Source: Patescibacteria group bacterium
GTDB taxonomy: Bacteria; Patescibacteriota; Minisyncoccia; Phycocordibacterales; UBA918
Length of the DNA: 64,000 bases
Assembly: GCA_019752815.1 (NCBI GenBank)
Contig: JAIELQ010000002.1
Coordinates: forward strand, 4,739-68,738
Direction: 5' to 3'
Shown here piece by piece: positions 17,327 through 42,536 of the stretch (within the stretch, counting starts at the first letter, position 1; every line of letters begins with the position of its first letter). Under the pieces are notes generated by a model that did no database searches, was not told the origin of the DNA, and saw only the letters and a list, made by a program, of their open reading frames with translations. The position numbers and the translations under genes were made by a program.

Positions 17327-17329
17327 ATA

Positions 17330-18880: not shown

Positions 18881-18980
18881 AATAAAATGAGTTATGTCAA
18901 TACAATAACACAAAAATTACACTATGTCTATATTTTTACGCTCTGCGTGCACCGTGATTCTTGTGATATTATAAAGTCCT

Positions 18981-24574: not shown

Positions 24575-24732
24575 AGAATTTAAAAAGCTGGTCCCTGATG
24601 GTGAAAAATTGACTGAGGATCAATTGATTATATTTCGTGACCTTATAGACGGACAGGCAGAGTTAATTCTTGACTCGTTTATGATTGAAAAGGCTAAAAA
24701 ACAACAAATGAATAATGATACAATATAGTGAC

Positions 24733-25134
24733 ATGAAAAAGTGGCTCACAAATAACAAAGTGGAGCTAGTGCTCGGCATTGGACTCACGCTCTTTTTGAT
24801 AAACCTATTTACTGAACAAGATAGTGACCTATACATCATTTCAATTCCATTAGTAGTAATCGGTGGACTGATGATGTACAAACGACACTTCCGTTCGAAT
24901 TCGTTCAATTCTTCATTCTATAGTTCGCTAGATGATATTGATGACGATGAGCTGTATGAAGATGCTAAGGAGGCGGTTCTAGAGGCTGGCAAAGCTTCTA
25001 CCTCATACATCCAACGCAAACTACGAGTTGGCTACTCCAGAGCCGCGCGCTTAATGGATATGCTAGAAGAGAAAGGTGTTATTGGTCCTGCCAACGGCGC
25101 AGAACCACGTGAAGTAAAAAACGTCCTTAAATAA
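24733..25134 (+). CDS. Small membrane protein with a C-terminal FtsK-gamma (winged-helix, KOPS-type) DNA-binding domain.
   Basis: Two N-terminal TM helices. The C-terminal sequence ([58 protein letters not shown]) matches the FtsK/SpoIIIE gamma domain consensus. Confidence 0.55.
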
Positions 25135-25182: not shown

Positions 25183-27237
25183 GTGAGAAAAATTGATCTA
25201 CATATTCACACAATCGCGGCACCTGAGGGTAAGGACGTGGCTTTTGAGTTTGATATTTCAAAATTTAAAGAATATGTTGACACTGCAGGACTACACGCAG
25301 TTGCAGTCACTAATCATAACCTATTTAACCTAGAACAATTTAACGAGATTGCAGATGCGTTACAAAACGTAAAAGTGTTCCCAGGGATTGAAATCGACTA
25401 TGAAGACGGGCATATGTTGCTTATTGCTGAAAATGACGATCTTGATGATTTTAATACCAGATGTGCATTAGTCGAAGCTGAACACAGTGCAAATGGTAAA
25501 GTCAGACACGCTAAACTAATTGAAATTTTTGAGGACGTTAGCAAGTACTTACTTATTCCGCATCACGACAAAGATCCAAAAATTGGCAGGGTTCACATTG
25601 ATGTGTTGCGTGATGAAATCACCGCAGGTGAAGTGGGGAGTCAAAAAAGATTTCATCGATTGTTAAAGAAGCAAGATGAGCTAGTACCTGTTCTTTTCAG
25701 TGATATTCGGGTTAAATCATCACTTGATGTTTCTACCGTTCAAGGTAGACAAACTTACCTTAAAACAAACGCAGAGGAATTGAGTCTAAGTGCAATCAAG
25801 GCTGCCTTGCAAGATAAAGACAAAGTATTCCTTAGTCGCACTGAAAATCATGATTTTTTTGAAATATTTTCTGATGGTCAACAACTTTCTCATGGACTGA
25901 ACGTTATACTAGGCAACAGATCCTCCGGTAAAACACACTTTTTAAACAAGATTGTTGAAATGCTAGGCAGTGATGAAAAAGGTGTTAAATACATCAAACA
26001 GTTTGAACTGACAAAAATCGATGAGAAAGAATTTAATGATCTTCTTGAGAAGCAAGGAGGTTTTGTGCGGGAAGAATATCTTAGTGCTTTCAAGCCAGTT
26101 GTACAAAACGTTTTGGAGATTGACCGCTCACTAACCTTGCAGAAGATTGAGGAGTTTACAAATTCGCTTGTTTTGTATGCAAACAATGAGCAGTTACAGG
26201 ATGAATATTCGAGAGCAGTACTTTTTAATCAGAGAAAGCTTCCAGTCAAGCGAGATGGTGGTATCAATATTCTGATTGATGCTATCAAAGCATTGTTGGA
26301 CAGCGATAGTCACAAAGACGTGATCCTGAAGCACTTACCTGAAGCTTCACTGAAAGCAGTGTTAAACGAACTAGCGTTGCAGATGAAAATAATCACGCTA
26401 GATCGTTTAAAGCGGGAGTGGGTGAACGAATTGGTAAGTGATATTTCTGATGGTCTGCAGTCACGTAGCTCAAGACCACCTGTAAAGCATAATGATCTGA
26501 GCATTTATACGGTAAAGCTTGAGAAGGAGAAGATAAGACGTTTCAACGCTGTTGCAAAAGCAGTAAAAACTAATCAGACAATTAGAAAAGAGAAGAAAGG
26601 TAAATTCACTGTGGAGGCTTATGTTAGACCGTATAGTGGCACTCAGGAAGTAAAAAATGAAAGTAAAACCAATGACATCTCCTTCAAAGATGCTTACGAG
26701 CACTATAGTGACCCCTTTAGATATCTCAGCATCCTGAAGACGAAGAATTTAGATAAAGCCTCTCTCTACAAGTACTTCTGCAAAGTAAGATATCAAGTAC
26801 TAAACGAGTACCAAAAACAAGTGTCTGGTGGAGAAATGACCGAGTTTAACTTACTCCAAAGGCTACAGGATGCTTTTCAATATGAAATGCTTCTAGTAGA
26901 TGAGCCTGAGTCATCATTTGATAACGTCTTCTTGAAGGAAAACGTTAATAAGATCTTGAAAGATATCTCTAGGGAATTACCGGTAATTGTAGTAACACAC
27001 AACAACACAGTTGGTATGTTACTGAAACCTGACTACATAATCTACACACAGCGAGAGATAGAAGAAGGCGAGGATAAGTACTATGTCTATTCAGGTTCAC
27101 CTGGAGAAAAGACTTTTAGTACTGCAGACGGCAGTAGAATGGTCGATAGCCACGCGATTCTCCTTGAGGCACTAGAAGCAGGTGCAAATGCATACAATGA
27201 CAGAAAAAGGATGTATGACACTTATAAGAAAAACTAG
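25183..27237 (+). CDS. PHP-domain phosphoesterase fused to an ABC/SMC-like ATPase; it resembles the single-gene Ppl anti-phage system.
   Basis: An N-terminal PHP motif (DLHIHT...TNHN...IPHHD), Walker A (GNRSSGKTHF) and Walker B (MLLVDEPESSFD) separated by ~320 aa. Confidence 0.55.
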   Translation: MRKIDLHIHTIAAPEGKDVAFEFDISKFKEYVDTAGLHAVAVTNHNLFNLEQFNEIADALQNVKVFPGIEIDYEDGHMLLIAENDDLDDFNTRCALVEAEHSANGKVRHAKLIEIFEDVSKYLLIPHHDKDPKIGRVHIDVLRDEITAGEVGSQKRFHRLLKKQDELVPVLFSDIRVKSSLDVSTVQGRQTYLKTNAEELSLSAIKAALQDKDKVFLSRTENHDFFEIFSDGQQLSHGLNVILGNRSSGKTHFLNKIVEMLGSDEKGVKYIKQFELTKIDEKEFNDLLEKQGGFVREEYLSAFKPVVQNVLEIDRSLTLQKIEEFTNSLVLYANNEQLQDEYSRAVLFNQRKLPVKRDGGINILIDAIKALLDSDSHKDVILKHLPEASLKAVLNELALQMKIITLDRLKREWVNELVSDISDGLQSRSSRPPVKHNDLSIYTVKLEKEKIRRFNAVAKAVKTNQTIRKEKKGKFTVEAYVRPYSGTQEVKNESKTNDISFKDAYEHYSDPFRYLSILKTKNLDKASLYKYFCKVRYQVLNEYQKQVSGGEMTEFNLLQRLQDAFQYEMLLVDEPESSFDNVFLKENVNKILKDISRELPVIVVTHNNTVGMLLKPDYIIYTQREIEEGEDKYYVYSGSPGEKTFSTADGSRMVDSHAILLEALEAGANAYNDRKRMYDTYKKN

Positions 27238-27238
27238 T

Positions 27239-27619
27239 ATGAAATATTTGGAAATCAAAAATAGTAAAGGGTTATTCAATCGCGATGGTGTCATGATTGA
27301 GATTGATCAAATTACTGCTGAAGATCTACTTACCATTATTAATCATGCTCATGAAGAAGACTTTGAAATCGATGAGTACACAGAGGCGGCACTCCCCAAC
27401 AAGGCTCATCAGCTCATTTATCAAAATATCTATATTAAACTAACAGACTTTTTGAGTGACAAGAATCAATTTAATCAGCAAGTTGATAAGTTGTACGAAG
27501 ACGCTATTGGCAAATATAATGCCGACATTCCTGCAGAAGCAGAGCCTGAAGTCGACAATATTAACGACTTTAAAGAAGCTGATGCTGAGGAAATTAACCC
27601 CGAGGACATACCATTTTAA
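27239..27619 (+). CDS. Hypothetical acidic protein of ~126 aa.
   Basis: Immediately downstream of the PHP-ATPase gene, with overlapping/adjacent starts. Asp/Glu-rich. Confidence 0.35.
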   Translation: MKYLEIKNSKGLFNRDGVMIEIDQITAEDLLTIINHAHEEDFEIDEYTEAALPNKAHQLIYQNIYIKLTDFLSDKNQFNQQVDKLYEDAIGKYNADIPAEAEPEVDNINDFKEADAEEINPEDIPF

Positions 27620-27728
27620 ATAATAACAACCTCGTTGGAGGGAGTTTATAAGCTATATTTGCTTGGTCATTCATAACTTCGTGATAATTGAGAATCCGAC
27701 CTTAAAATGCTACTCTATCTAGTATTAT

Positions 27729-30584
27729 ATGGGTAAGATTACAGCGTATCACGGCAAGTATTTTGCATATGAACTTACTCGAGAATACTCGTCGGATGAT
27801 TTGCAAAAATTCACCCGTACTCTTTTGAATGCCAAAGTGGATTTAAATCCCCATCAGGTGGAGGCTGCACTGTTCGCATTTCGATCTCCGTTTTCGAAGG
27901 GTGCCATCCTCGCAGACGAAGTTGGTCTCGGGAAGACTATCGAAGCTGGTATTTTATTGTCTCAAAAATGGGCAGAGAAAAAGCGACACATCCTCCTTGT
28001 TATGCCCTCAAGCCTACGGAAACAGTGGCAACAAGAACTTGCAGATAAATTTTACTTACCATCGTTTATTTTGGAAGCGGGCACTTTTAATTCAATACGC
28101 AAAGCTGGTTCAAGCAATCCTTTTGATACAACTGAAAGAATTGTAATTTGTTCATACCACTTCGCAAAAGCAAAAGCAGAGTACATCCGTAAGGTAGATT
28201 GGGATATTGCGGTCCTTGATGAAGCGCATCGCTTGCGTAACGTATACAAAAAGGATAATAAAATTGCTAATGAGATCAAGGATGCACTAGCTGGAGTACC
28301 TAAAGTCTTACTCACGGCGACCCCACTTCAAAATTCATTGCTAGAGCTCTATGGGCTAGTCAGCTTAATCGATGAGCAAATATTTGGAGATATTGAGAGT
28401 TTCCGGTCCCAGTTTAGTCGCGCTGATGAAGATGGCTTACTTGATCTTCGTTCACGCATTCGTCCTGTCTGTCAGCGAACATTACGCAAACAGGTGCCAG
28501 ATATTCCTTACACAAACCGTATCGCAATCACTCAAGAGTTCGTTCCAACTGAGAAAGAACATCAGTTATACGAACACGTATCAAATTACCTGCAAAAAGG
28601 TGACCTGTATGCGTTACCGAAGTCCCAGCGCCATTTGATGACACTAATTCTACGTAAGTTATTAGCATCTTCATCTTTTGCTATTTCGAGCACTCTAGAT
28701 AAACTTGCTACTAAGCTTGAGCAGTATCTAGCCAGCGGTACACTTTTGGGTGATTTTGCTGATGTCCTCGATGAAGATGAGCGAGAGTTATATAATGAAC
28801 ACCAAGATGAGCACGCTGACGAGGAAGATGTTTCTAATGCTCCAACGTATACAGCTGAGCAGAAACAAGCAATAGAAAAGGAGATTCAAGAATTACGGCA
28901 CTTCCATAAGCTTGCAGAGGAGATTGAGCATAACGCTAAAGGAGATGCTCTTATTGAGGGATTACGACGTGGCTTTGAAGCGCTTCGGGCAAATTCTGCA
29001 CCAGATAAAGCAGTTATTTTTACCGAATCAACCCGCACCCAAAACTATTTGTTCGAGGTGCTAAATAGTATTCCAGATTATACCGGTAAGGTTTTGTTGT
29101 TTAACGGAAGCAATAATGACCAGCTTTCTAAACGTCTTTATGATGCATACCAAAAAAAGTATGCTGGCACTGAGCGTATCAGTGGTTCCCGGAGTGCTGA
29201 CACTCGTGCTGCAATAGTAGATGCTTTCCGCGATACAGGAATGATACTTATTGCTACAGAAGCGGCTGCTGAGGGTATAAACCTACAATTCTGTAGTTTG
29301 CTTGTGAATTATGACCTGCCATGGAATCCTCAACGCATTGAGCAACGAATTGGACGATGTCACCGCTACGGACAAAAATTTGACGTTGTCGTCATTAACT
29401 TTCTCAATAAAAAGAACGCTGCCGACCAACGAGTGTACGAGCTACTCAATGAGAAGTTTAAACTCTTTAATGGTGTATTTGGAGCAAGTGATGAAGTGCT
29501 TGGCGCCATTCAGTCAGGTGTTGATTTTGAAAAGCGTATCGTTGAAATCTACCAGACTTGCCGTAGTGAAGTGGAGATCAAGACAGCTTTTGATGCTCTT
29601 CGGGCAGAACTCGATGAACAGCTTACTAGTAAACTAACTGAAGCAAATAAAAAGCTATTCGAGCACTTTGACGAAGAAGTGCGTGAAAAACTTAAAGTTC
29701 AGGACGCGAATACAAAACAAGCACTCGCTACTCAGGAGCGGTATTTGTGGCAACTGGCACAACTGTATTTAAGTAACAGTGCTGTTTTTGAAGAAGGTGA
29801 ATATCGCCTTACACTCCACACTGCACCACGTGCCGATGTGCCTACCGGGGTGTATCATATGGATTACAGGAAGAACGAACCGCATCACTTCCGAATCGGC
29901 TGTCCATTAGCTGAATGGCTCCTTGAAACCGCTAAAAGCGCCGACACTCCGAACACTGTTTTAAAATTTGCCTACACAGGGTCAAATACTAAGATTTCTA
30001 CTCTAGAGCCACTCGTAGGCAAGAAAGGGGTATTGTCGCTGAATCTACTCACTGTAGCTGGTGCTGACAATCAAGAGCTCCTTGTATTTGCAGGTCAGAC
30101 AGCGAGTGGTCATGAACTTGATGCTGATCAATGCTATCGACTGTTTTCATTACCAGCTACCACTACAGGTGCTGAAGCTGTAGCTAATGAACAGTTGCAA
30201 AAGATTTTTGAAAAGAAGCAGCATGTGATCATGACAGATATTGCTGAACGAAACAGTAAATATTTTAATGAAGAGTCAATGAAGCTTGAAAAGTGGGCAG
30301 ACGATAAAAAAGCCTCCCTTGAGAAGGAGATGAAAGATACCAAGATTCGTATGCGAGAACTCAATCGCGAAGCCAGGCAAGAAAAAGACATGCAAAAGCA
30401 ACTTGAGATTCAAAAAAGACTCAAAGAAACAGAGCGAAAACTACGAATACTACGCCAAAACATTTTTCAAGCCGAAGATGAAATTGAGACTGAACGCGAG
30501 CGTCTCATTGCTACACTAGAAGAAAAGCTTAAGCAGAGCACAGCTGTAACGCCAATTTTTAGCATTGAGTGGGAACTCGTTTAA
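27729..30584 (+). CDS. SNF2-family helicase.
   Basis: Helicase motif I (ADEVGLGKT), DEAH box (VLDEAHRLRN) and SNF2 C-terminal helicase motifs (LIATEAAAEGINLQ...QRIGRCHRYGQ). The C-terminus has a ~300-aa coiled-coil-rich extension. Confidence 0.8.
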   Translation: MGKITAYHGKYFAYELTREYSSDDLQKFTRTLLNAKVDLNPHQVEAALFAFRSPFSKGAILADEVGLGKTIEAGILLSQKWAEKKRHILLVMPSSLRKQWQQELADKFYLPSFILEAGTFNSIRKAGSSNPFDTTERIVICSYHFAKAKAEYIRKVDWDIAVLDEAHRLRNVYKKDNKIANEIKDALAGVPKVLLTATPLQNSLLELYGLVSLIDEQIFGDIESFRSQFSRADEDGLLDLRSRIRPVCQRTLRKQVPDIPYTNRIAITQEFVPTEKEHQLYEHVSNYLQKGDLYALPKSQRHLMTLILRKLLASSSFAISSTLDKLATKLEQYLASGTLLGDFADVLDEDERELYNEHQDEHADEEDVSNAPTYTAEQKQAIEKEIQELRHFHKLAEEIEHNAKGDALIEGLRRGFEALRANSAPDKAVIFTESTRTQNYLFEVLNSIPDYTGKVLLFNGSNNDQLSKRLYDAYQKKYAGTERISGSRSADTRAAIVDAFRDTGMILIATEAAAEGINLQFCSLLVNYDLPWNPQRIEQRIGRCHRYGQKFDVVVINFLNKKNAADQRVYELLNEKFKLFNGVFGASDEVLGAIQSGVDFEKRIVEIYQTCRSEVEIKTAFDALRAELDEQLTSKLTEANKKLFEHFDEEVREKLKVQDANTKQALATQERYLWQLAQLYLSNSAVFEEGEYRLTLHTAPRADVPTGVYHMDYRKNEPHHFRIGCPLAEWLLETAKSADTPNTVLKFAYTGSNTKISTLEPLVGKKGVLSLNLLTVAGADNQELLVFAGQTASGHELDADQCYRLFSLPATTTGAEAVANEQLQKIFEKKQHVIMTDIAERNSKYFNEESMKLEKWADDKKASLEKEMKDTKIRMRELNREARQEKDMQKQLEIQKRLKETERKLRILRQNIFQAEDEIETERERLIATLEEKLKQSTAVTPIFSIEWELV

Positions 30585-33500
30585 TTACAATCGTATGGAA
30601 AATAATTTAGAAAAATTCAAAAACACACTCAGGGTCATCTTTCAAATTGACCGTGCTGACCTTGATTTCGGTATTTACCGCATTTTAAACCAGAAACATA
30701 GGGAGATTGAAAGTTTTCTTGAACAAGACTTACTCCCGCAAGTAAAAAAAGAACTAGCTACCTACGAAGCTGGTGACTTAGCAGAACTTTCACGCGAACT
30801 CGATGAGAAGGTAGCAAAATTTCGTGCCGATGGATTCACTGACGATCAAATTAGTGCTAACGAAAAAATCTCAGAATTGCGCGACAAGCTAAAAACCGCA
30901 GATCGTGTAGCGACACTTGAAAGTGAAGTTTTTTCACACCTACTTCGCTTTTTTGAACGGTATTACGAAGAGGGAGACTTTATCAGCAAACGACGCTACA
31001 AGGACGGTGTCTATGCTATTCCGTATGAAGGGGAGGAGGTAAAGTTGTACTGGGCAAACCACGATCAGTACTACATTAAAACCAGTGAACGCTTCAAAGA
31101 CTTTTCATTCAAAGTAGGTGACAAAGGTGTCCACTTTAAAATTCGTGAAGCCGAAACAGATACAAACAATAATAAAAACATCACTGGTAAGGACCGACGG
31201 TTTGTGCTTTGTGCTGAGGATTTTTGGCAAGAAGATGGCGCCGTGCTTAATATTTTCTTTGAGTATGCCAGCGTTGATGGAAAAAAGAAGCAAGAGGAGT
31301 GTAGCAAGGAATCTGTTGAGCGTATTCTTTCTGACATACCTACTCATTGGAAGACTGTTCTCGGTGCTTTGGCTCCAACAGAGAAGCAGAAAGACCGTAC
31401 TACGTTGGAAAAATTCTTGACCTCGTATACCGCGCGAAACACCTTTGACTATTTCATTCATAAGGATCTTGGTACCTTCCTAACACGCGAACTAGACTTC
31501 TACATCAAGAATGAAGTGATGTTTCTTGATGATATTGAGAACGAGACCGTCCCACGCGCAGAGCAATATCTTGCCAAGGTAAAAGTAATTCGTGCCATTG
31601 GAAAAAAGATTATTCGTCTACTTGCACAACTCGAGGACTTCCAGAAGAAGCTATGGGAGAAGAAGAAATTTGTGGTTGGTACTGGGTACTGCATTACACT
31701 GGATTTGATCCCAGAACGATTTTACGATGCTATTTTAGAAAGTGAAGCACAGCGCAACGAATGGAAGCAGCTCGGCTTTGTCGATGACACAACATCGCTA
31801 GATCATGAGTACCTACGGTCACATCCGACACTTTCCATTGATACAAAATTCTTCCCAGAATGGCGAGATGGGCTTTTGGCTACGTTCGATAATCTTGATG
31901 AGCGAGTGAATGGCGTGATGATTAATTCTGAGAATTTTGGTGCCCTTAATTTACTCCAAGAACGATACAGCGAGCAGGTCAAAACAATCTATATTGATCC
32001 ACCTTACAATACATCAGCAAGTGAAATTTTGTATAAAAATGAGTATAAGCATTCAAGCTGGTTGTCATTAATGCAAAATAGACTCGATGAGAGTAAAAGC
32101 TTGTTACATTCATCTGGAGCCATATGCGTTGCCATTGATGATGAGGAAGTATCTGTCATTAAGACACTACTGACGGGTACATTTGATAAGAATTTAGGGA
32201 CAGTACTTGTTCGTTCAAATCCAGTGGGTAGAAAAACTACTGGTAAATTTACACCTAACCATGAATATGCGCTGTTCTTCGGTAAGACTGAGTCAGTTTC
32301 CCCATCAAGCATTACAGATCCTGAAAAGGGAGTAGAAAGATATCCACTTATAGATGGTACAGGTAGATACTCCTGGTTAAATTTTATTAGAGCTGGAAAT
32401 AATGATAGACGAGAAGATAGTCCACGCATGTATTATCCCATTGTTGTAACTCCTGATGATAAAATTCGAATACCTGAAATGCGATGGATTTCCGCTGTTG
32501 CCGGTTATGAAATCACAGAGAAATTGCATGAAGGAGAGGTAGTTATATACCCAATCAAACTTGAAAACGGTATTTCAATTGAAAAAAATTGGCAACGTGG
32601 ATTCGAAAGAGTTTCGACCGAGATCGACGAATACCGTGTGAGAAGAACTCCGACGGGTATATCAATTGATTTCAAAGCTAGAATGGATATGAATGCTGCT
32701 CCCAACACTTGGTGGGGCGATAGTAAGTATGCTTCAGCGAACTACGGTGCAGCTGAACTAAAGAGTCTATTTACTGATAATCCTTTCAGTTATCCTAAAG
32801 CTTGCGCATTAGTGAAAGATTGTATTACAGCAGCTGGGCTTAAAGATAGCAATGGGTTAATCATCGACTACTTCACTGGCTCAGGGACAACTGGTCATGC
32901 TGTACTGAAATTAAATAGTGAAGACAATAAAAATGAACCCGGGAGTGGTCAACGTAAATACATTCTCGTTGAAATGGGAGCATACTTCGATACGGTTACT
33001 AAGCCACGCATGCAAAAGGTGGTATATTCAGACGAATGGTCAGCAGGGAAGCCGCAGGACGATGGTGCCACTGGGACACGCGAACACATCATCAAATACT
33101 TCAAGCTAGAAAGCTACGAAGATACACTTAATAATCTTGAACTGTTGCGGTCCGACGACCAGCAAGCTACACTTGATCAACACCCGCATTTCCGTGAAGA
33201 CTACACACTTGGTTACATGCTCGATGTTGAAGCTCGGGGTAGCGTGTTGCGCCTAGATGCGTTTCGCAATCCTTTTGCATATACCATCAAACTTGCAACT
33301 GATGTAGTAGGAGAAAGTCGCGAGACACCTGTAGACTTGGTAGAAACATTCAATTACCTCATTGGACTTAAAACAGCTTCGGTGCGCCGGCATGGTGAAC
33401 ATTTACTAGTGGTAGAAGGCGAAACTCGTGGTGGAGAAAAAACACTTGTTATCTGGCGTAATCAAGAGATAGTTACTAATGACGGACTCGATGATTTCTT

Positions 33501-33648
33501 CAAGAAGCAGAACTATAGCACGACCGACTTTGAGTTTGATCGAGTATACGTAAATGGAGACAACAATCTAGAAAACCTGAAATCAGACAGTGATCAGTGG
33601 AAGGTAGTAACGATTGAAGAAGAATTCCATAAGCGAATGTTTGCGTAG
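30565..33648 (+). CDS. N6-adenine DNA methyltransferase, beta-class and Mod-like, with a ~470-aa N-terminal extension.
   Basis: Motif IV (IYIDPPYNT) at ~aa 478 precedes motif I (DYFTGSGTTGHAV) at ~aa 770, with a ~290-aa TRD-like spacer between them. The start overlaps the SNF2 stop. Confidence 0.7.
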   Translation: MSGNSFNYNRMENNLEKFKNTLRVIFQIDRADLDFGIYRILNQKHREIESFLEQDLLPQVKKELATYEAGDLAELSRELDEKVAKFRADGFTDDQISANEKISELRDKLKTADRVATLESEVFSHLLRFFERYYEEGDFISKRRYKDGVYAIPYEGEEVKLYWANHDQYYIKTSERFKDFSFKVGDKGVHFKIREAETDTNNNKNITGKDRRFVLCAEDFWQEDGAVLNIFFEYASVDGKKKQEECSKESVERILSDIPTHWKTVLGALAPTEKQKDRTTLEKFLTSYTARNTFDYFIHKDLGTFLTRELDFYIKNEVMFLDDIENETVPRAEQYLAKVKVIRAIGKKIIRLLAQLEDFQKKLWEKKKFVVGTGYCITLDLIPERFYDAILESEAQRNEWKQLGFVDDTTSLDHEYLRSHPTLSIDTKFFPEWRDGLLATFDNLDERVNGVMINSENFGALNLLQERYSEQVKTIYIDPPYNTSASEILYKNEYKHSSWLSLMQNRLDESKSLLHSSGAICVAIDDEEVSVIKTLLTGTFDKNLGTVLVRSNPVGRKTTGKFTPNHEYALFFGKTESVSPSSITDPEKGVERYPLIDGTGRYSWLNFIRAGNNDRREDSPRMYYPIVVTPDDKIRIPEMRWISAVAGYEITEKLHEGEVVIYPIKLENGISIEKNWQRGFERVSTEIDEYRVRRTPTGISIDFKARMDMNAAPNTWWGDSKYASANYGAAELKSLFTDNPFSYPKACALVKDCITAAGLKDSNGLIIDYFTGSGTTGHAVLKLNSEDNKNEPGSGQRKYILVEMGAYFDTVTKPRMQKVVYSDEWSAGKPQDDGATGTREHIIKYFKLESYEDTLNNLELLRSDDQQATLDQHPHFREDYTLGYMLDVEARGSVLRLDAFRNPFAYTIKLATDVVGESRETPVDLVETFNYLIGLKTASVRRHGEHLLVVEGETRGGEKTLVIWRNQEIVTNDGLDDFFKKQNYSTTDFEFDRVYVNGDNNLENLKSDSDQWKVVTIEEEFHKRMFA

Positions 33649-33651
33649 GAT

Positions 33652-36600
33652 ATGGCAAAGAAAGCAGCACCAAAAAAATCACTGCGTTTTGATCAACGAC
33701 TCGTGTTACAACGATGGTTTTTGTCGCTGTTTGATGTCGCAAAATTTGAAGATTTAGCAAAAGATCTCAAAGACCCACGCTACGAAGGTTACACCGAAGA
33801 TAATCAGTCTCACTTTTACCATCATCTGACAGCTCGAACTGCTCCGTTTAGTGGTATCAGTAAGGAACAGTTATTACGGTATGACGAAAATATCTTCTCA
33901 CATACTCTGCGCATCAGTGAACGTCGCCCGAGGCGAGTAACATGGAAATATTTCCAGTATCTTTCACTTTTAGCTACCGAAGTATATTTAGATCGTTGGT
34001 TCACAAATAAAGGAGAATTATGTGCTGACCTTAATGCCTATCTAACGACTTTCAATGATGAGCTACCTGTAAGTGATCAGGTAGAGCCATTCACTGTAGC
34101 TGGTCTATCAAAATTAGCGTTTTGGTCTGCAACAGGTAGTGGGAAGACACTGCTAATGCATGTGCACCTTTTACAGTATCTCCACTATGCGAAAAAACAT
34201 CGAGTAGAAAAAGACATCAATAAAGTCATCCTTATCACACCAAATGAAGGTTTGTCTTCCCAGCACTTAGACGAACTCAGCCTTTCAAGCATCCCGGCTC
34301 GGATTTTTACTAAAGGTAACGAGACAACGTCGCTATTCGCAGGCTTCGGAAATGAAAAACCTGTTGAAATCATCGAATATACAAAACTTAAAGAAGAGAG
34401 TAAGGAGAAAACGGTAGCACTTGAAGCCTTTGAGCATAACAATCTCGTATTTATTGACGAAGGACACAAAGGGGCAGGCGGCGATGTGATTAAACGTTAT
34501 CGCGATACACTATCCGAAGACGGTTTTGCATTTGAGTATTCAGCCACATTCGGTCAGTCGATTAAGGCTGCATCTACAGGTAAGCGAAAGCTATTAGAGC
34601 AGGAGTATGCCAAAGCCATTCTTTTTGATTACTCATACCGTTACTTCTATCGAGATGGATATGGTAAAGACTATAAAATTTTGAACCTGCCGGACGACCA
34701 AGCGTTCGATGAAGCAATCAGACGTTTGTATCTCACAGCTGGACTTTTAACATTCTACCAACAGACAAGGCTCTACACCGATGACACAAAGGCATGGAAA
34801 GCGTTCTTACTGGAGCGACCGTTGTGGGTCTTTGTTGGTGGCAAAGTAACTGCAGTTCGTAAGGAAGGTGGGCGTGAAGTATCTGATGTTGTTGAAATTA
34901 TTTTATTCATTAATGACTTTTTAGAGAATAAAAACGAAAGCAAGCGACTACTGAAAGGACTTATGGACGGCAAGACCGGACTTACAGACACAGCAGGTCG
35001 TGACGTATTTGCGTCATCTTTTGGCTACATACAGACTCTGGGACTATCTACCGAAGATTTGTACAACAACATTATAGAGTCCGTATTTCGTTCACGTGGT
35101 GGTCAACTACATCTTGATAATCTAAAAGGTGTCGATGGTGAGATTGGTGTACGCGTAGGGACGGGCGAGTACTTCGGTGTTATTAACGTTGGTGACGACA
35201 AGGAGCTTTTAAAGCTTTGTGAGACAAGTGGTATTAATACTGCCGAAGTTGAGTTCAGATCATCGCTCTTTAGAAAGATTAATGACGATGACTCAACAGT
35301 TAATCTTTTGATTGGTTCAAAAAAGTTTACTGAAGGGTGGAGTAGTTGGCGTGTAAGTTTGATGGGTCTGATGCATATTGGTCGCAGTGAAGGCTCAGAA
35401 ATCATCCAGCTGTTTGGTCGTGGAGTGCGTTTAAAGGGCAAAAACTGGTCTCTGAAGCGCAGTAAAGCAATTGAGGGTAGTAATGCGCCAAAACACATTC
35501 AGGTGCTCGAAACGCTCAATATTTTTGGTGTTCGTGCTGACTATATGCGCACCTTCAAGGAATATCTCGAGGAGGAAGGATTGCCGACTACAGATACAAT
35601 CGAAGTTGTATTACCTACACTTCGTACATTTGACCCAAATCGCAAACTTAAAGTACTACGCATTCGTGATGGAGTAAGTTTCAAGCGAGATGGTGGCAAA
35701 GTAGACTTCTCCTTGACGGTCGATAAACGCATTGCTCCAGTTGAACTCGATTGCTATCCGAAGCTTCAAGCCTTGGTTGGTGGTGTATCGCAAGGAATTA
35801 CTACTGATCCAGATGTGGGTATTTTTTCACCTGTTCACTTAGCATTCTTCAACTACACTGAGCTCTACTTCGAACTGCAAAAGTATAAAAACGAAAAGAA
35901 TTGGTACAACGTAAATATTACTGCGGAAAGTATCCAGAACCTACTGCTCGATACATCATGGTATCGCTTATACATCCCACACCAGCAATTGACCATGGGG
36001 GACTATTCACGTGTACGTTACTGGCAAGAAATTGCTCTATCATTACTCAAGAAGTACTTAGTGGCATTGTACAACTATCGTAAAGCAGAATGGGAAGAAC
36101 CATATCTTGAGTATCAGGACATGCGTTCTGATGATCCTAATTTTGTTGATGAATACCGAGTGAATGTACCCGATGATGCAGACCACAACGTAGCACTAGA
36201 TAAGATACGCTTGCTCGAGAAACTACTACTCCAACTGAAGAGAGAAAATAAAAACGAAGTGCCAGACGTACAATCGTTTGCTGCAGGTAGTTTCGTACCA
36301 TTTACGTTTGATCGTCACCTCTACCACCCGCTCATTCATATCGACGAAAGTATTGGTATGCAGATAACGGTAAAACCAGTTCACTTAAACGAAGGCGAGC
36401 ATCGTTTTGTTTTAGATTTGCAGCAGTTCTACAACGAGCAACCTGACGCGTTTGCTGGTAAGGAACTTTTTTTGCTTCGCAATAAGTCAAAAGAAGGAAT
36501 TGGGTTTTTTGAAGCGGGTAACTTCTATCCCGACTTCATCATGTGGCTTGTTGACGAGATGACCCAACACGTAGTATTTATTGATCCAAAAGGTATTCGT

Positions 36601-36840
36601 AATTTGGATATATCTGATGATCTTAAGCTGAACTTTCATGCCAAACTAAAGGAAAAAGAAGCCCGACTGGGTGAGCCAAATATCAAATTACACTCGTATA
36701 TCATTTCACGCACTCCATTTGATCTACTCATCAATTACAAATCGGACCAATCTTCACTTGAAGCAAAAAATATTTTATTCCAGCACCAAGGCAGTGATTA
36801 CGTACGCAAGATGTTAAGCAAGGTGCTTATAGAGGAGTAG
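33652..36840 (+). CDS. Res-like DEAH helicase with a C-terminal PD-(D/E)xK-type nuclease motif (a Type III Res-like subunit).
   Basis: Walker A (WSATGSGKT) and motif II (FIDEGHK) in the N-terminal third. Near the C-terminus a YPDF...VVFIDPKG (PD...DxK) motif. The start lies 4 nt after the methyltransferase stop. Confidence 0.6.
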   Translation: MAKKAAPKKSLRFDQRLVLQRWFLSLFDVAKFEDLAKDLKDPRYEGYTEDNQSHFYHHLTARTAPFSGISKEQLLRYDENIFSHTLRISERRPRRVTWKYFQYLSLLATEVYLDRWFTNKGELCADLNAYLTTFNDELPVSDQVEPFTVAGLSKLAFWSATGSGKTLLMHVHLLQYLHYAKKHRVEKDINKVILITPNEGLSSQHLDELSLSSIPARIFTKGNETTSLFAGFGNEKPVEIIEYTKLKEESKEKTVALEAFEHNNLVFIDEGHKGAGGDVIKRYRDTLSEDGFAFEYSATFGQSIKAASTGKRKLLEQEYAKAILFDYSYRYFYRDGYGKDYKILNLPDDQAFDEAIRRLYLTAGLLTFYQQTRLYTDDTKAWKAFLLERPLWVFVGGKVTAVRKEGGREVSDVVEIILFINDFLENKNESKRLLKGLMDGKTGLTDTAGRDVFASSFGYIQTLGLSTEDLYNNIIESVFRSRGGQLHLDNLKGVDGEIGVRVGTGEYFGVINVGDDKELLKLCETSGINTAEVEFRSSLFRKINDDDSTVNLLIGSKKFTEGWSSWRVSLMGLMHIGRSEGSEIIQLFGRGVRLKGKNWSLKRSKAIEGSNAPKHIQVLETLNIFGVRADYMRTFKEYLEEEGLPTTDTIEVVLPTLRTFDPNRKLKVLRIRDGVSFKRDGGKVDFSLTVDKRIAPVELDCYPKLQALVGGVSQGITTDPDVGIFSPVHLAFFNYTELYFELQKYKNEKNWYNVNITAESIQNLLLDTSWYRLYIPHQQLTMGDYSRVRYWQEIALSLLKKYLVALYNYRKAEWEEPYLEYQDMRSDDPNFVDEYRVNVPDDADHNVALDKIRLLEKLLLQLKRENKNEVPDVQSFAAGSFVPFTFDRHLYHPLIHIDESIGMQITVKPVHLNEGEHRFVLDLQQFYNEQPDAFAGKELFLLRNKSKEGIGFFEAGNFYPDFIMWLVDEMTQHVVFIDPKGIRNLDISDDLKLNFHAKLKEKEARLGEPNIKLHSYIISRTPFDLLINYKSDQSSLEAKNILFQHQGSDYVRKMLSKVLIEE

Positions 36841-36850
36841 TTCGATTAGT

Positions 36851-37420
36851 ATGCCTAAATATGTTTTAACACCCGAATACCTTTCTGAGTTAGAACATTT
36901 TTTGGATGAGTTAACGTCACAAGAACAAAAGACAATCATCACGGTATATTTACGGCTGTGTTCAGATTACATCAATAACACTCTATCTGGTAAGACCGAA
37001 ACATACATACTGCCTAAAAGTACTGCTTTTATTATTCGTGCAAAATATGGCGTTCGGGTTCATTTGTTTACGCGGATATTTGATGACTCACCTCATTACA
37101 ACAAAGCACGAAGCCTAGGTATTTTAAGTTTTGATGCCGGTTTATGGTCTGCGCTGCATGATAAGCACCCTGGTCAAACTTATACATTCAGTGCTGGGGA
37201 TGGAGCAAAAACACAACATGGTGAAATATTTTTTAGAACAAAGTCCACTAAGCAGAAACACAGGTTACACCCGGATGAACTTCAAAAATTAAAAAATACC
37301 TTACCGAAATCTAACAGTAAGGTGAAAAACACAAAATCAGCTGGGAAATATAAAACGTATAAATTCATCCCAAAAGATTCGCCTGAGCCCGTGTTCTACA
37401 GAAAGAAGCAAATTTTATGA
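36851..37420 (+). CDS. Hypothetical protein of 189 aa.
   Basis: The stop overlaps the next start (ATGA). No recognisable motifs. Confidence 0.4.
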   Translation: MPKYVLTPEYLSELEHFLDELTSQEQKTIITVYLRLCSDYINNTLSGKTETYILPKSTAFIIRAKYGVRVHLFTRIFDDSPHYNKARSLGILSFDAGLWSALHDKHPGQTYTFSAGDGAKTQHGEIFFRTKSTKQKHRLHPDELQKLKNTLPKSNSKVKNTKSAGKYKTYKFIPKDSPEPVFYRKKQIL

Positions 37421-38148
37421 AAAAGAGACTGTCACAATCGACAATAGAAAAACTTAATTATTACGTATACGCTCTTATCGATCCTCGGTCAGACAAGGTG
37501 TTTTATGTAGGTAAAGGAAAGGGGAACCGCATTTATGCCCACGTAGAAGCTTCAGAGTCAGTGGATACGAATGAAGTGATGAAGATAGCAAAAATACGGG
37601 AAATTCGGGCGGCAAAAAAAGATGTAAAACATGTTGTTATTCGTCACGGACTGACAGAAGACCAAGCTTTTGCTGTTGAAGCTGCCGTGATTGACTATGT
37701 TGAGTCAGTTCAGAAGCAACAACTTACAAACCTCATGTCAGGACACTACACGGCTGAAGCTGGAATTCGCACCATTGAAGATATCGAAATCCAGTATGAG
37801 GCGAAGCCAGCTATCTTTAGTGAACCAATAATGCTTATTCGTGTGAATAGGCATTATAAACACGGCATCACAGATAAAGAGCTTTATAACGTTACCCGGC
37901 AGCATTGGCGCGTTGGTCCGCGTGCTTTCCAAATTAAGTACGCGTGCGCTGTTTACCTTGGTATTATTCGTGAAGTGTATGAAATCAAATCATGGACACC
38001 TACGGAAGTAATTAATGGACATCAGCGTCACGGGTTTAATGGACGTATAGCATCAAAAGAAGTCAGGGATAAGTATCGATACACGTCAGTAAAGCACTTG
38101 TTTAAACAAGGGCACCAAAGCTCGATCGTCTATGCAGAGCCAAACTAA
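37417..38148 (+). CDS. GIY-YIG nuclease domain protein.
   Basis: The N-terminal sequence YYVYALIDPRSDKVFYVGKGKGNRIYAHV matches the GIY-YIG signature (GIY...YVG...R...H). Confidence 0.55.
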   Translation: MKKRLSQSTIEKLNYYVYALIDPRSDKVFYVGKGKGNRIYAHVEASESVDTNEVMKIAKIREIRAAKKDVKHVVIRHGLTEDQAFAVEAAVIDYVESVQKQQLTNLMSGHYTAEAGIRTIEDIEIQYEAKPAIFSEPIMLIRVNRHYKHGITDKELYNVTRQHWRVGPRAFQIKYACAVYLGIIREVYEIKSWTPTEVINGHQRHGFNGRIASKEVRDKYRYTSVKHLFKQGHQSSIVYAEPN

Positions 38149-38298
38149 CAAAGATGCACACTAAAATGAAAATGCCTCATATACCAGAGACGTACAGACC
38201 CGTTATATCGATTGAGCAGTATCGTGCTCTAACCAACGACCATAAATCACCAGACGATTTGATTACACGGCGAATCTTCTACATAGAGCGTTTGTGTC

Positions 38299-38484
38299 GT
38301 GGTGTCATTCAGCAAGAACTACGTAATACCTATGCGGATAAGTGATGAACACATGAACGAGTTTATACGCCTTTATGAAGAAAAGTTCGGCGTTAAACTC
38401 GAATACCAGGAAGCCTACGATAAAGCCTCACGTTTACTTCGTTTCGTTGAGATAGTCGAGTCGGAAGGGTACAAGCAGAGCTAA
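38299..38484 (+). CDS. Small hypothetical ORF; possibly part of a frameshifted gene together with 38154-38345.
   Basis: Two overlapping short ORFs sit in different frames. No RBS is evident. Confidence 0.2.
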   Translation: MVSFSKNYVIPMRISDEHMNEFIRLYEEKFGVKLEYQEAYDKASRLLRFVEIVESEGYKQS

Positions 38485-38601
38485 TATTTTATCGCATCGT
38501 GATAATGGTGTAGATGCGATAAACGATAAGGATTTTCGCTACAGCTACAATGAGACCAAGGTGGTAAATAAAAACGCATACGAGCGATTTTTACCCTCAA
38601 T

Positions 38602-38841
38602 TTATGTCGTCCCCGGGGCTGTTTTGGAAATGTCTCGTTTCGCAATTGAGACTAAGTAACGCAACACCGCCGGTCGCTCATTTTTGGCGTAGTCATCCTT
38701 ATCAACCAGGCGATGAAAATGACGACGAACACTAGCCTCAGTCAGGTTGGTATTTCGGATACTCTCAGCAAAGACGGTGTAGGTACTATAAAACGGGTGC
38801 TTGGTAGCTATCTTCTCATAACGGGATTTAATGTCGTACAT
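38602..38841 (-). CDS. Small putative HTH DNA-binding protein of 79 aa.
   Basis: NLTEASVRRHFHRLV looks like an HTH recognition helix. It is divergent from the Rep-like gene across the iteron region. Confidence 0.3.
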   Translation of the reverse strand: MYDIKSRYEKIATKHPFYSTYTVFAESIRNTNLTEASVRRHFHRLVDKDDYAKNERPAVLRYLVSIAKRDISKTAPGTT

Positions 38842-39026
38842 GCATGATTCGTAGCGGGATTATGTGCTACGAGCCAGATTATCTCAGAGTACTAATTTAC
38901 CCTCAGGCATTCATCGCAGTTACCTTTACTGCTACAAAACTGACTCTGTAGCAACATCCCCGTGTGAGCGCCGGGTTGAGCCCCCAAGAGGCGACCGGCC
39001 GAACAAAGGGGATGCTGCAGTGCCTG

Positions 39027-39075
39027 CTATTAAAAAACGCTGCTATTAAACTTATCTATTAAACTTATTTATTAG
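39027..39075. repeat. Iteron-like tandem direct repeats.
   Basis: CTATTAAACTTAT is repeated perfectly twice (39043-39055 and 39056-39068) with partial copies on each side. Nearby inverted repeats of GAGTA/TACTC lie at 39097-39135. Confidence 0.5.
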
Positions 39076-39172: not shown

Positions 39173-39805
39173 ATGTATAAAGATATGGTTAAATTAATGC
39201 CAGATGAATTTGCTCCAAAAGATTACTTTGCAGATAAAAATGTAGCGGATTACTGGACGATTCCTAAAGGTGTAGCAAAGTGTGAGGCACTATCTTGGGG
39301 TTCAAAAATGCTATATGGAGTAATTTTTGGACTAGCGTACGATAAGAAACAAGCATTTGCTTCATACAAAACGTTGCGTAAGCATTTAGGTAATCCAAGC
39401 CAGGCAACACTACAGCGCTGGCTGAAGGAATTGTTTGATGCGAGATTAATTCGTGCCATTCAGCGCGGACGAGGTGCTACAAACCTATACCGTTTACTAA
39501 AATCACCACTGGTTGGCAACATGACCGACGAGGAATATGCCTTAGGTCCGCAGGTGGTGTATGCAGGGGCTTTAACTGATGAGCCTAAGCTGGTCGACAT
39601 TCAAGAAGCTATCGATCTGTTTGAGATGGAGTATTTCGAGTGGGGAATGAAGAGTACTCTGCCGAGTGACTTTAAGCTACCAAAACCTTACTTCAAAGGA
39701 AGACGAGAAAAAGTAAACACGACTCGCTCATACTGGTTCTGGTATGTTGCAGATAAGTACCTATTCGATTCAGGACTCGCTCTAAGCACCGAGTTTGAGG
39801 AATAA
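39173..39805 (+). CDS. Winged-HTH protein, a putative replication initiator (Rep-like) or element regulator.
   Basis: The central region (YKTLRKHLGNPSQATLQRWLKELFDARLIRAIQRGRGATNLY) looks like a winged HTH. It lies immediately downstream of the iterons. Confidence 0.4.
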   Translation: MYKDMVKLMPDEFAPKDYFADKNVADYWTIPKGVAKCEALSWGSKMLYGVIFGLAYDKKQAFASYKTLRKHLGNPSQATLQRWLKELFDARLIRAIQRGRGATNLYRLLKSPLVGNMTDEEYALGPQVVYAGALTDEPKLVDIQEAIDLFEMEYFEWGMKSTLPSDFKLPKPYFKGRREKVNTTRSYWFWYVADKYLFDSGLALSTEFEE

Positions 39806-40634: not shown

Positions 40635-40806
40635 ATCACGTACTCGGCTCCAAACCTATCTCATGAAGCTGAATCACGTCAGCGACAAGCCCTTAGTAGT
40701 GAAGTACATACGCGATGAAGATGCTTCACTTAAATACCGTCGTGACAATGCTTTGCGCCGCGTTATCGAAATTACTATTGACTACATCAACAAAAACAAA
40801 CTATGA
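40624..40806 (+). CDS. Small basic hypothetical protein of 60 aa; a possible recombination directionality factor.
   Basis: It overlaps both neighbouring genes and lies immediately upstream of the integrase. No homology recognised. Confidence 0.25.
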   Translation: MATKSRTRLQTYLMKLNHVSDKPLVVKYIRDEDASLKYRRDNALRRVIEITIDYINKNKL

Positions 40807-42536
40807 ACAACCTCATTTCGTTAGCTATAGTGCTCGTCTGCATATACCTAAGAACTTCAACTGATAGACAGGAGCGTGATGAGACGATTAAAACTCAACG
40901 CGCAACAATAAAAAGATTCCTTGACTCAAAATATGGTCCGGGTAACTACGAGATTGTTGCTGAGTATGCTGATGATGGATACACCGGTACTAATATGAAT
41001 AGACCGATGTTGCAGCAAATGCTTCAAGACTCTCAAACCGATAAGTGGGACATCCTGGTTACGTTTGATTCAAGCCGTCTATCACGTGACTTCAGCGACG
41101 GTATCACAATCGTAGACAATATAATGCAGGCAGGAAAACAAATTCTTTACACTGACGGAAGCTCACCAAACGGGCGACCTAAACTGTTGAATCGTGTAAT
41201 GGCTGCAGTTGACGATGATGACCGCGAACGAACGGTGCGAAAGTTTCTTGAAGGAAAGAAACATCGTGCTTCACAAGGTCGAATCATGAATAGTGTTAGC
41301 GCATACGGATATACCCTTATTCCAAAGGTGGGATGGCAGGGAAGAGCTGACTATAAAGATACTGAACTAGTTATCAATCCCGATGAGGCTGTAGTTGTGA
41401 AGTTAATTTTTCATCTTGTTGGCAACGAACGCTACTCAGCAAGGCAGGTAATAAAAAAATTGATGGAGCTGGGAATAAAACCTCGCAAGAGTACGCGTGG
41501 CATTTGGGCTCATAGCAGTATCTACAATATGCTCAATAACGAAGTGTATATCGGTAATCTACGCTACGCTTCTTCTATTGCAGTAGAACCCAAGCGACAA
41601 ATTAAACGGCTCCGAAAGAAAAATATTGTAAAAACTAGTCGGATAATAAAGCCACGCAGTGAATGGCAAATCATGAGCGTACCTGCAATTCTTGAGGGAC
41701 AGGAAGGTGTCTTACTCTTTCAACGTGCCCAGGAGCAACTGAGGAGAAATAGACGAGAGGCAAAAGGGAACCGTGATCCCCACAGTTACTTACTCTCAGG
41801 TCGAATTGAATGTAGTTGTGGTTATGCTCGATGTGGCGAAGGTGCAAAAGCCTCGGGCAATCTTTACTACCGTTGCTCAGACAGGGTATCGAACTTTCCT
41901 TTAAGTACCTGTGATGTTGGTGGTGTTCGAGCTATTGATTCTGATGAAGCGGTCTGGCGCTATCTGAGTGCGTTAGTCAGCACCCCCACAGTTTTTCAAG
42001 AAGCTGTTGATGAGTACATGTCTGGATCCATGAGCAAACCAGTTAATGAAGCAGAGCTGGCTATAAGAGCGCTTCAAAAAGAAGAAGAATCACTCATCAA
42101 TGCAAGGACTCGCCTAGAAACTGCACTTCAACGCGGAACACTCGATTACGAACGCTTTGGAGAACTTAATAAAGAAAATAAAGAGAGATTGTCTGAGGTT
42201 AAGGTAAAACTCAATCAGTTGCTTGCTACACAAACTTCGGAAGGTCCGAGCATTGTTGATCCGTATTTAGCGCAGAAAATTGTATTCTACGCACAATCAG
42301 CACTTAGAGACATGAGCTTTGAAGATAAACGTCAATTTGTACTCGACACAGTAACGAAAGTCGTTGCTGTGCCAGGTGAATTGCGTGTAGAAGGAGCACT
42401 ACCCTTAGTTGAGACCTGGTCATACGACGCCATTATCTTGCCTTTACGTCAAAATAAAGCTAAGATTCCGTCACCTTTTTATTATGTCCAGTTCAAAACT
42501 ATCAGTGGGAATTGTTGGACTGCCAAACGTTGGTAA
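40803..42536 (+). CDS. Large serine recombinase (integrase).
   Basis: The catalytic motif VCIYLRTSTDRQ and the motif DSSRLSRD. A recombinase domain, a zinc-ribbon (CSCGYARCG...YYRCSD) and a C-terminal coiled coil give a length of 577 aa. Confidence 0.85.
   Translation: MNNLISLAIVLVCIYLRTSTDRQERDETIKTQRATIKRFLDSKYGPGNYEIVAEYADDGYTGTNMNRPMLQQMLQDSQTDKWDILVTFDSSRLSRDFSDGITIVDNIMQAGKQILYTDGSSPNGRPKLLNRVMAAVDDDDRERTVRKFLEGKKHRASQGRIMNSVSAYGYTLIPKVGWQGRADYKDTELVINPDEAVVVKLIFHLVGNERYSARQVIKKLMELGIKPRKSTRGIWAHSSIYNMLNNEVYIGNLRYASSIAVEPKRQIKRLRKKNIVKTSRIIKPRSEWQIMSVPAILEGQEGVLLFQRAQEQLRRNRREAKGNRDPHSYLLSGRIECSCGYARCGEGAKASGNLYYRCSDRVSNFPLSTCDVGGVRAIDSDEAVWRYLSALVSTPTVFQEAVDEYMSGSMSKPVNEAELAIRALQKEEESLINARTRLETALQRGTLDYERFGELNKENKERLSEVKVKLNQLLATQTSEGPSIVDPYLAQKIVFYAQSALRDMSFEDKRQFVLDTVTKVVAVPGELRVEGALPLVETWSYDAIILPLRQNKAKIPSPFYYVQFKTISGNCWTAKRW

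Follow-up and report, generated by a model that had tools for sequence, protein, structure and literature searches.

We analysed a 64,000-nt stretch (the window; all coordinates are window positions) of contig JAIELQ010000002.1 (assembly GCA_019752815.1) from a Patescibacteria group bacterium, a member of the candidate phyla radiation (CPR), in which a sequence-only reading had picked out five densely packed, co-directional open reading frames (ORFs) as one defence module. All five are present at the coordinates then given (Table 1), and encode in turn an SNF2-family ATPase (g1, SNF2), a long relative of the modification subunit of Type III restriction-modification (R-M) systems (g2, Mod), a helicase-nuclease resembling the restriction subunit of such systems (g3, Res), a 189-aa protein (g4) and a GIY-YIG nuclease (g5); in GenBank their annotation goes no further than 'DEAD/DEAH box helicase' or 'hypothetical protein'. 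Comparison with related loci identifies SNF2-Mod-Res as the unit, with g4 as a clade-specific appendix and g5 as cargo. The explanation that we favour, and consider likely, is accordingly that of a three-gene, Type III-like R-M system and a separate CMoRE-type g5 on a defence island, the region as a whole being made up of independent defence modules stacked on an integrative element in a CPR bacterium.

Table 1. Features of the locus.
Feature	Position	Strand	Basis or remark
g1 (SNF2), SNF2-family ATPase, DrmD/RapA-like, 951 aa	27729..30584	+	Pfam, PADLOC, NCBIfam and PDB searches
g2 (Mod), long Type III-like Mod, beta-class N6-methyladenine (m6A) methyltransferase, 1017 aa	30595..33648	+	PADLOC MTase_III, PDB Mod matches; longest ORF 30565-33648 (1027 aa from TTG 30565)
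Mod N-terminal domain, about 440 aa, family hallmark	30595..31884	+	conserved across the long-Mod family
Mod target-recognition domain (TRD)	32013..32884	+	between motif IV DPPY (31996-32007) and motif I FxGSG (32872-32886)
g3 (Res), Res-like superfamily 2 (SF2) helicase with C-terminal PD-(D/E)xK nuclease, 1062 aa	33652..36840	+	Pfam ResIII, PADLOC REase_III, motifs
g3 Walker A	34129-34149	+	ATGSGKT motif
g3 DEGH	34456-34467	+	helicase motif
g3 PD...DPK nuclease motif	36529-36591	+	PD960-961...DPK978-980
g4, accessory protein, 189 aa, basic C-terminus, predicted Gre/Rnk-like fold	36851..37420	+	clade-specific, directly after Res
g5, CMoRE/PD-T4-3 homologue: GIY-YIG nuclease with modification-sensing domain	37417..38148	+	PADLOC, PDB 9u7u
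5' leader, forming the left edge of the conserved module	27686..27728	+	DNA homology to the near-identical relative L081 begins at 27686
PDC-M49A/PDC-M49B, candidate defence pair, upstream neighbour	25183..27619	+	PADLOC 3e-228 and 2e-29
HTH_36/replication-initiator-like gene	39173-39805	+	Pfam, PHROGs matches
Large serine recombinase (Resolvase, Recombinase, Zn_ribbon_recom), adjoining ychF	40803-42536	+	Pfam, PHROGs

The five genes and their products

Mod matches the PADLOC profile MTase_III (PDLC03646, 1,057 positions) almost from end to end (5e-217), its only Pfam match being N6_N4_Mtase (PF01555). The motif order originally noticed, i.e. DPPY, a TRD-like spacer of about 290 aa and then FxGSG, as in Type III Mod, stands, with DPPY at ORF residues 478-481, FxGSG at 770-773, 289 aa between them, and both motifs invariant among relatives. 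Over residues 440-855 the protein aligns with the Type III Mods 7dsu, 6k0w and 4zcf, and in profile searches the catalytic half matched the Mods of EcoP15I, Mbo45V and H. pylori (7dsu, 6e-45; 6k0w, 2e-41; EcoP15I Mod, 3e-31). The N-terminal extension, at first left unexplained, is not a peculiarity of this one protein and defines a long-Mod family of about 2,600 representative clusters, and PADLOC has full-length profiles for Mod and Res alike; full-length homologues of Mod number at least 8,000 (99% coverage). The isolated N- and C-termini of Mod matched nothing in Pfam.

The comparison of the window with its near-identical relative L081 reveals a clean TRD swap. SNF2, Res, g4 and g5 are 99.7%, 99.6%, 99.5% and 99.2% identical, respectively, to their counterparts there, whereas Mod is 76% identical, a figure that combines 98-100% identity over residues 1-480 and 760-1017 with 18-35% over residues from about 480 to 760; the DNA homology is interrupted exactly at the limits of the TRD, between DPPY and FxGSG. 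Exchange of TRDs is known for Type III mod alleles and is typical of live R-M systems, and its occurrence here on a background of 99.2-99.7% identity therefore supports the presence of a working R-M system.

For Res, the earlier assignment of a DEAH-type helicase core and a C-terminal PD...DxK motif is upheld by a Pfam match to ResIII (1.6e-10), by the DEGH motif and by PD...DPK. The protein matches the PADLOC profile REase_III (PDLC03654, 1,154 positions; 2e-214), the sole REase profile that it matched, and each of the motifs ATGSGKT, DEGH, SAT, QxxGRGxR and PD960-961...DPK978-980 is kept by 93% or more of 72 homologues. The full-length homologues of Res number 8,000 or more, some of their records being titled 'Type III restriction enzyme, res subunit', and the isolated N- and C-termini again matched nothing in Pfam.

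The identification of g1 as an SNF2 ATPase with DEAH and HELICc is likewise secure, with Pfam matches to SNF2-rel_dom (1.7e-36) and Helicase_C and with the motifs GLGKT66-70, DEAH164-167 and QRxGRxHRxGQ539-549 kept across 53 homologues. The helicase core occupies approximately residues 30-670 and is followed by a family-specific C-terminal region of about 280 aa, with a K/E-rich predicted coiled coil at its end, for which a Pfam search with the isolated segment gave no match. RapA is the closest relative in the PDB (1e-39), and g1 also matches the PADLOC BrxHI/BrxHII profiles (3e-62).

The overlap of g1 and g2 (30565/30584) that formed part of the case for an operon is an artefact of a longest ORF that opens at the first in-frame TTG. 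Since every close relative begins Mod at the same conserved MENN... (ATG 30595), the g1 stop falls 10 nt before the Mod start, and the junction is a 10-nt gap and not a 20-nt overlap. The remaining junctions are as first described or tighter, with gaps of 3 nt (g2/g3) and 10 nt (g3/g4) and an overlap of 4 nt (g4/g5). This tight packing agrees with a single operon, and co-transcription of the five genes is plausible, although consensus scans for promoters and terminators gave site numbers at or below the expectation from shuffled sequence; the terminator scan placed no + strand site at any of the gene junctions.

Described earlier as a 189-aa unknown, g4 indeed has no family match in Pfam, PADLOC, NCBIfam or PHROGs; fold prediction gives it a weak likeness to Gre proteins. 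Seven homologues only were found among 5.8 billion proteins. In every contig of the closest relatives g4 stands directly 3' of Res, whilst the gene after it differs, being the GIY-YIG gene in near-identical strains, one for an unrelated protein of 179 aa in a second lineage, and genes for proteins of 231 aa and 372 aa with DUF2779 in a third. A recurrent small gene after Res, i.e. a hidden fourth component, was looked for in other lineages and none was found. We regard g4 as a clade-specific appendix to the trio.

The GIY-YIG assignment of g5 is confirmed by Pfam, and the protein is moreover a full-length match to the PADLOC family PD-T4-3 (1.8e-47, profile positions 4-252 of 256) and to PDB 9u7u (E=3e-35), against which its residues 8-238 align with 14-257 of 262, including YVY...FYVGKGKGNR and both domains; it thus covers the YxY...YVG GIY-YIG domain and the C-terminal sensing domain of the solved structures. 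PD-T4-3 is CMoRE, a single-protein Type IV endonuclease for DNA containing 5-hydroxymethylcytosine or its glucosylated form (5hmC/5ghmC); the E. coli and Klebsiella proteins cleave such DNA and protect against T-even-like phages, and CMoRE alone is sufficient in E. coli (PMC12923530). Unlike these, g5 belongs to a CPR bacterium, comes directly after an R-M module and overlaps g4 by 4 nt. Nevertheless, because it is a full-length CMoRE homologue, is absent from all 80 of the wider loci examined below and gives way to unrelated genes in the nearest relatives (L085-L088), g5 is a separate, single-gene Type IV system in a swappable slot, that is, interchangeable cargo.

Distribution and co-variation of SNF2, Mod and Res

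Two N-domain peptide patterns located long Mod in at least 590 species-representative genomes, from Bacteroidota, Pseudomonadota, Bacillota, Planctomycetota, Nitrospirota, Acidobacteriota, Chloroflexota, Campylobacterota, Saccharibacteria and other phyla. We fetched 80 loci from genomes matching long Mod and assessed the 75 with Mod-Res for SNF2. In 75 of the 80, Mod is followed by a co-directional Res, the other five loci ending at contig edges, and in 52 of these 75, from more than 15 phyla, a co-directional gene upstream encodes a full-length g1 homologue with 41-53% identity. The co-directional SNF2-Mod-Res module is thus recurrent, whereas the five-gene order that the sequence-only reading had in mind occurs in none of the 80 loci, from which g4 and g5 are both absent; with g5 a homologue of a stand-alone nuclease and g4 confined to its seven homologues, the claim that all five form one defence module did not hold.

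In the other 23 of the 75 loci Mod-Res occurs without SNF2, mostly between housekeeping genes (MutS, aminotransferase, TPR proteins). The presence of SNF2 is clade-structured, as the SNF2 status of a locus matches that of its nearest neighbour by Res in 56 of 64 cases. Where SNF2 is present, the SNF2-Mod gap is 3-100 nt in most loci, and about 18 loci have genes inserted between the two. Among 43 complete trios, distances between Res proteins correlate closely with those between Mod N-domains (r=0.88, Mantel P=0.001) and less closely with those between SNF2 proteins (r=0.61, Mantel P=0.001), and TRD distances are uncorrelated with either SNF2 or Res (r about 0.08-0.10).

Defence cargo is embedded between Mod and Res in 40 of the 75 loci, and comprises AAA_21 with DUF4276 (7-8 loci), AbiJ-like proteins (AbiJ_NTD4; 6), RhuM (4), YhcG PD-(D/E)xK (3), Fic (3), Schlafen/AlbA_2, GmrSD and AAA ATPases of 870-935 aa; the GmrSD in one related locus may play a part analogous to that of g5. 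The same embedding behaviour has been described by Payne et al. for BREX, DISARM and Type I R-M, and the SNF2-Mod-Res family would be a rich host for 'guilt-by-embedding' outside that survey. The slot upstream of SNF2 is similarly variable, holding CBASS (in L081), DUF2779 or ADP-ribosylglycohydrolase in relatives and PDC-M49 in the window.

The same trio, generically annotated, is carried by conjugative plasmids of E. coli and Klebsiella (IncF and Klebsiella plasmids), for instance at 29496-39016 of E. coli pEC316_2 (NZ_CP018955.1), and an intact trio is present in 2 of 5,426 complete E. coli genomes. With Mod and Res homologues numbering at least 8,000 each, and with members on conjugative plasmids of clinical Klebsiella and E. 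coli, the trio probably ranks among the most common R-M architectures still uncharacterised; its presence on such plasmids also makes it directly testable.

Three observations on related loci may be recorded here. A 298-bp piece of the Res gene of pEC316_2 (L089, 14104-14401) recurs at 99.7% identity in some 166 further E. coli records, most of them plasmids, where it is annotated 'DUF1158 domain-containing protein'; as the intact trio is found in only two E. coli genomes, the piece looks like a widespread remnant. In the E. coli/Klebsiella plasmid versions an 81-aa helix-turn-helix regulator (L089, 5781-6026), with no counterpart in the window, overlaps the start of SNF2 and could be a C-protein-like controller. 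Finally, in a Binatia metagenome-assembled genome (MAG) a single Res is preceded by a tandem pair of long Mods (L018, 6332-13138).

Proposed mechanism and relation to known systems

The trio shares with Type III R-M of the EcoP1I/EcoP15I (Mod2Res) kind adjacent, co-directional mod and res genes (3 nt apart in the window), a beta-class Mod with the order motif IV - TRD - motif I, sequence similarity to EcoP15I Mod and exchanged TRD alleles, and a Res in which an SF2 ATPase is followed by a C-terminal PD-(D/E)xK nuclease. It differs in that Mod is about 400 aa longer N-terminally and about 170 aa longer C-terminally, in that Res has no detectable specific homology to EcoP1I/EcoP15I Res, in that about 70% of loci have a third, SNF2-family gene, and in that mod is free of the phase-variable repeats that were looked for there. 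PADLOC and some public annotations already class both Mod and Res as Type III; however, as Res fails the homology test against characterised Res proteins, we suggest that the trio is better described as Type III-like than as Type III. The initial view that this is no canonical two-gene Type III system is sustained. Of the findings named beforehand as refuting it, Mod and Res do match Type III profiles over their full length, and the GIY-YIG gene proves an unrelated neighbour, but SNF2 does not, being a conserved partner of Mod-Res.

The mechanism that we propose follows these likenesses. Mod, by homology to Type III Mods, would recognise a short DNA motif by way of its exchangeable TRD, methylate adenine and so mark host DNA as self. 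The Res-like protein would dock on Mod, probably through the Mod N-terminal domain, as their co-evolution suggests, whilst its conserved motifs are consistent with an SF2 ATPase that communicates along DNA and a PD-DxK site that cuts unmethylated DNA. SNF2, a DrmD/RapA-like ATPase, may act as a conserved accessory translocase or remodeller of double-stranded DNA, enhancing or gating restriction, and would not be strictly required, since whole clades have Mod-Res alone. In this scheme g4 would be a lineage-specific add-on to Res. For its part g5 would act on phage DNA with hydroxymethyl- or glucosyl-cytosine that is spared by methylation-sensitive restriction, complementing the trio without belonging to it; such a placement would amount to sensible layering, in that hypermodified phages evading R-M become the targets of g5.

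Several points weigh against this explanation. Neither a phmmer search with Res nor one with a 17-sequence family profile matched any PDB entry, including 4zcf, at E<=1, and hhalign aligned Res with EcoP1I Res at the Walker A motif only (4.9% probability), although the single-sequence template limits sensitivity; lacking detectable specific homology to canonical Type III Res, the window protein may operate by a mechanism different from the one-dimensional diffusion of the EcoP15I type. The argument for docking of the Mod N-domain on Res is a correlation between sequence distances, and the predicted model of that domain is of moderate confidence only. The role proposed for SNF2 in restriction is purely inferred, and in class 1 DISARM co-deletion of drmD and drmMI lowered protection against only some phages, indicating that the contribution of an SNF2 partner can be subtle. 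In addition, the 4-nt overlap of g4 and g5 suggests translational coupling in this lineage, with some functional link between them being possible, and a literature search found no experiment on any member of the family.

A more far-reaching proposal is that the trio is a distinct and very widespread three-component restriction class whose mechanism is unlike that of EcoP15I-type Type III systems, with SNF2 driving translocation or remodelling and the Mod N-domain coupling it to a Res family unrelated to the classical one. The trio would then be a convergent counterpart of DISARM class 1, ARMADA and BREX type 3, sharing their logic of SNF2, methyltransferase and motor-nuclease, and within the same proposal the Gre/Rnk-like fold predicted for g4 might tie the trio to RNA polymerase in this CPR clade. 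We hold this proposal as tentative.

A second possibility reduces the system to Mod-Res and treats SNF2 as an independent neighbour, i.e. a stand-alone defence gene or embedded cargo. The 23 loci without SNF2, most of them flanked by housekeeping genes, the loci with extra genes between SNF2 and Mod, and the looser correlation of SNF2 with Res than of Mod with Res all accord with it. Yet the position and strand of SNF2 are constant in 52 of 75 loci from distant phyla, whereas the largest family of embedded cargo occupies 8 loci; SNF2 distances correlate significantly with those of both Res and Mod (P=0.001); and its presence is clade-structured, 43 of 45 nearest neighbours being in agreement, with short gaps to Mod in most loci. 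We consider this possibility rather unlikely.

That the system is a class 1 DISARM (or ARMADA) in reduced or divergent form, with a DrmD-methyltransferase head joined to a Res-like protein in place of DrmA/B/C (or ArmC), is improbable. DrmD is the closest named relative of g1, and the order SNF2 - methyltransferase - helicase-nuclease mirrors that of DISARM class 1 and ARMADA. However, the match of g1 to PADLOC DrmD (PDLC02619, 1e-209) is limited to profile positions 24-651 of 872, the helicase core, and that to NCBIfam DrmD_b reaches 707.6 bits, under the cutoff of 950, with the C-terminal 210 profile positions unmatched; SNF2 is, moreover, missing altogether from about a quarter of the loci. 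The resemblance to class 1 DISARM (DrmD, DrmMI, DrmA, DrmB, DrmC) consists of a DrmD/RapA-clade SNF2 directly 5' of an adenine methyltransferase and of an asymmetric-site logic, but the methyltransferase belongs to PF01555, with Type III Mod homology, and is not a PF13659/PglX-like enzyme such as DrmMI. Searches of Pfam and PADLOC at E<=1 with g2-g5 and their neighbours, sub-segments included, gave no match to DUF1998, PLD or DrmA/B/C, so the earlier conclusion that DrmA/DrmB, with its DUF1998, and the PLD nuclease DrmC are missing and that this is not DISARM can be retained.

The likeness to ARMADA type II extends to a RapA-like SNF2 (ArmA), an adenine methyltransferase, a helicase with a nuclease of the PD-(D/E)xK superfamily, the same gene order and a setting in mobile defence islands. 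Against this, ArmB is PglX-like (NPPW, gamma-class), ArmC has YprA/DUF1998 with Vsr nucleases, and ArmD, a UvrD protein, has no counterpart in the window; the definition of ARMADA demands the YprA/DUF1998 ArmC and the PglX-like ArmB, and as Pfam and PADLOC detect no YprA, DUF1998 or Vsr domain here we rejected the assignment. Beyond SNF2 the resemblance is one of logic and not of homology. In BREX type 3, similarly, a RapA-like SNF2 helicase (BrxHII, about 940 aa) accompanies a large methyltransferase (PglXI/BrxXI), but the window has no PglZ, BrxC, BrxA or BrxF, g2 matches no PADLOC BREX methyltransferase profile, and the module has a dedicated nuclease-helicase. The published descriptions of Hma, Dnd-associated SNF2, MORC-associated R-M, programmed-inversion DISARM-like loci and Asgard DISARM do not match the trio either.

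Improbable too is the reading from which the analysis set out, in which the five genes form one integrated system and GIY-YIG acts as a further effector nuclease. Although the five genes are co-directional, with gaps of at most 10 nt or a 4-nt overlap, and the same array occurs at more than 99% identity in four metagenome contigs, those contigs represent near-identical strains and hence are not independent evidence, g5 is missing from the 80 wider loci and has unrelated genes in its slot in the next-closest relatives, and its homologue CMoRE works alone in E. coli.

The preferred explanation is thus that of a Type III-like module, widespread, unnamed and apparently untested, whose proteins are individually known to detection tools. 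The description of the locus as an undescribed variant survives insofar as no paper naming, describing or testing the trio was found, within a literature coverage that is incomplete, and the E. coli plasmid protein accessions appear in 0 papers; it does not survive for the parts, for which PADLOC already has profiles and reports Type III R-M plus DrmD. Current tools split the trio in just this manner, into 'RM Type III' and an orphan 'DrmD', and its three-gene nature and the 440-aa Mod domain have been overlooked. To our knowledge the role of the RapA-like helicase in DISARM class 1, ARMADA and BREX type 3 is still not known, and the role of the SNF2 partner here could explain a motif common to all three.

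Flanks of the defence island

The locus offers a clear example of layered defence, with methylation-sensitive restriction beside a modification-dependent nuclease on an island of swappable cargo in a CPR bacterium of small genome. The serine recombinase by ychF (40803-43590) marks the right end of an integrative defence island of about 20 kb, whose left side lies near an S49 peptidase gene (21042-21884); a megablast search of the whole region against plasmids gave no match. Upstream of the trio, a sigma-70-like match at 27681-27708, by the point at which homology to L081 begins, is weak and not above chance. PDC-M49A (684 aa) lies directly upstream of the trio; the profile match of PDC-M49B opens at ORF residue 20, and its true start is therefore probably near 27239, just past the M49A stop. 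As the corresponding cargo in L081 is CBASS and not PDC-M49, this variation may be set beside that of the g5 slot; PDC-M49A/B is separate cargo, outside the SNF2-Mod-Res module.

Also inside the island, 24715-25134 encodes a 139-aa protein whose only domain is an FtsK gamma (KOPS-binding winged-helix) domain. Elsewhere in the window, on the - strand, lies an RND efflux pair (14165-18913) made up of an AcrB-family protein of 1053 aa and an HlyD-type adaptor. Patescibacteria are generally thought to have no outer membrane, and the pair is unusual for them and may have a bearing on the binning of the MAG. Downstream of g5, the HTH_36/replication-initiator-like gene is one that also follows the trio in relatives L086-L088, and just 5' of it in the window a 13-bp tandem repeat (CTATTAAACTTAT, 2.5 copies, 39043-39074) could be an iteron or operator.

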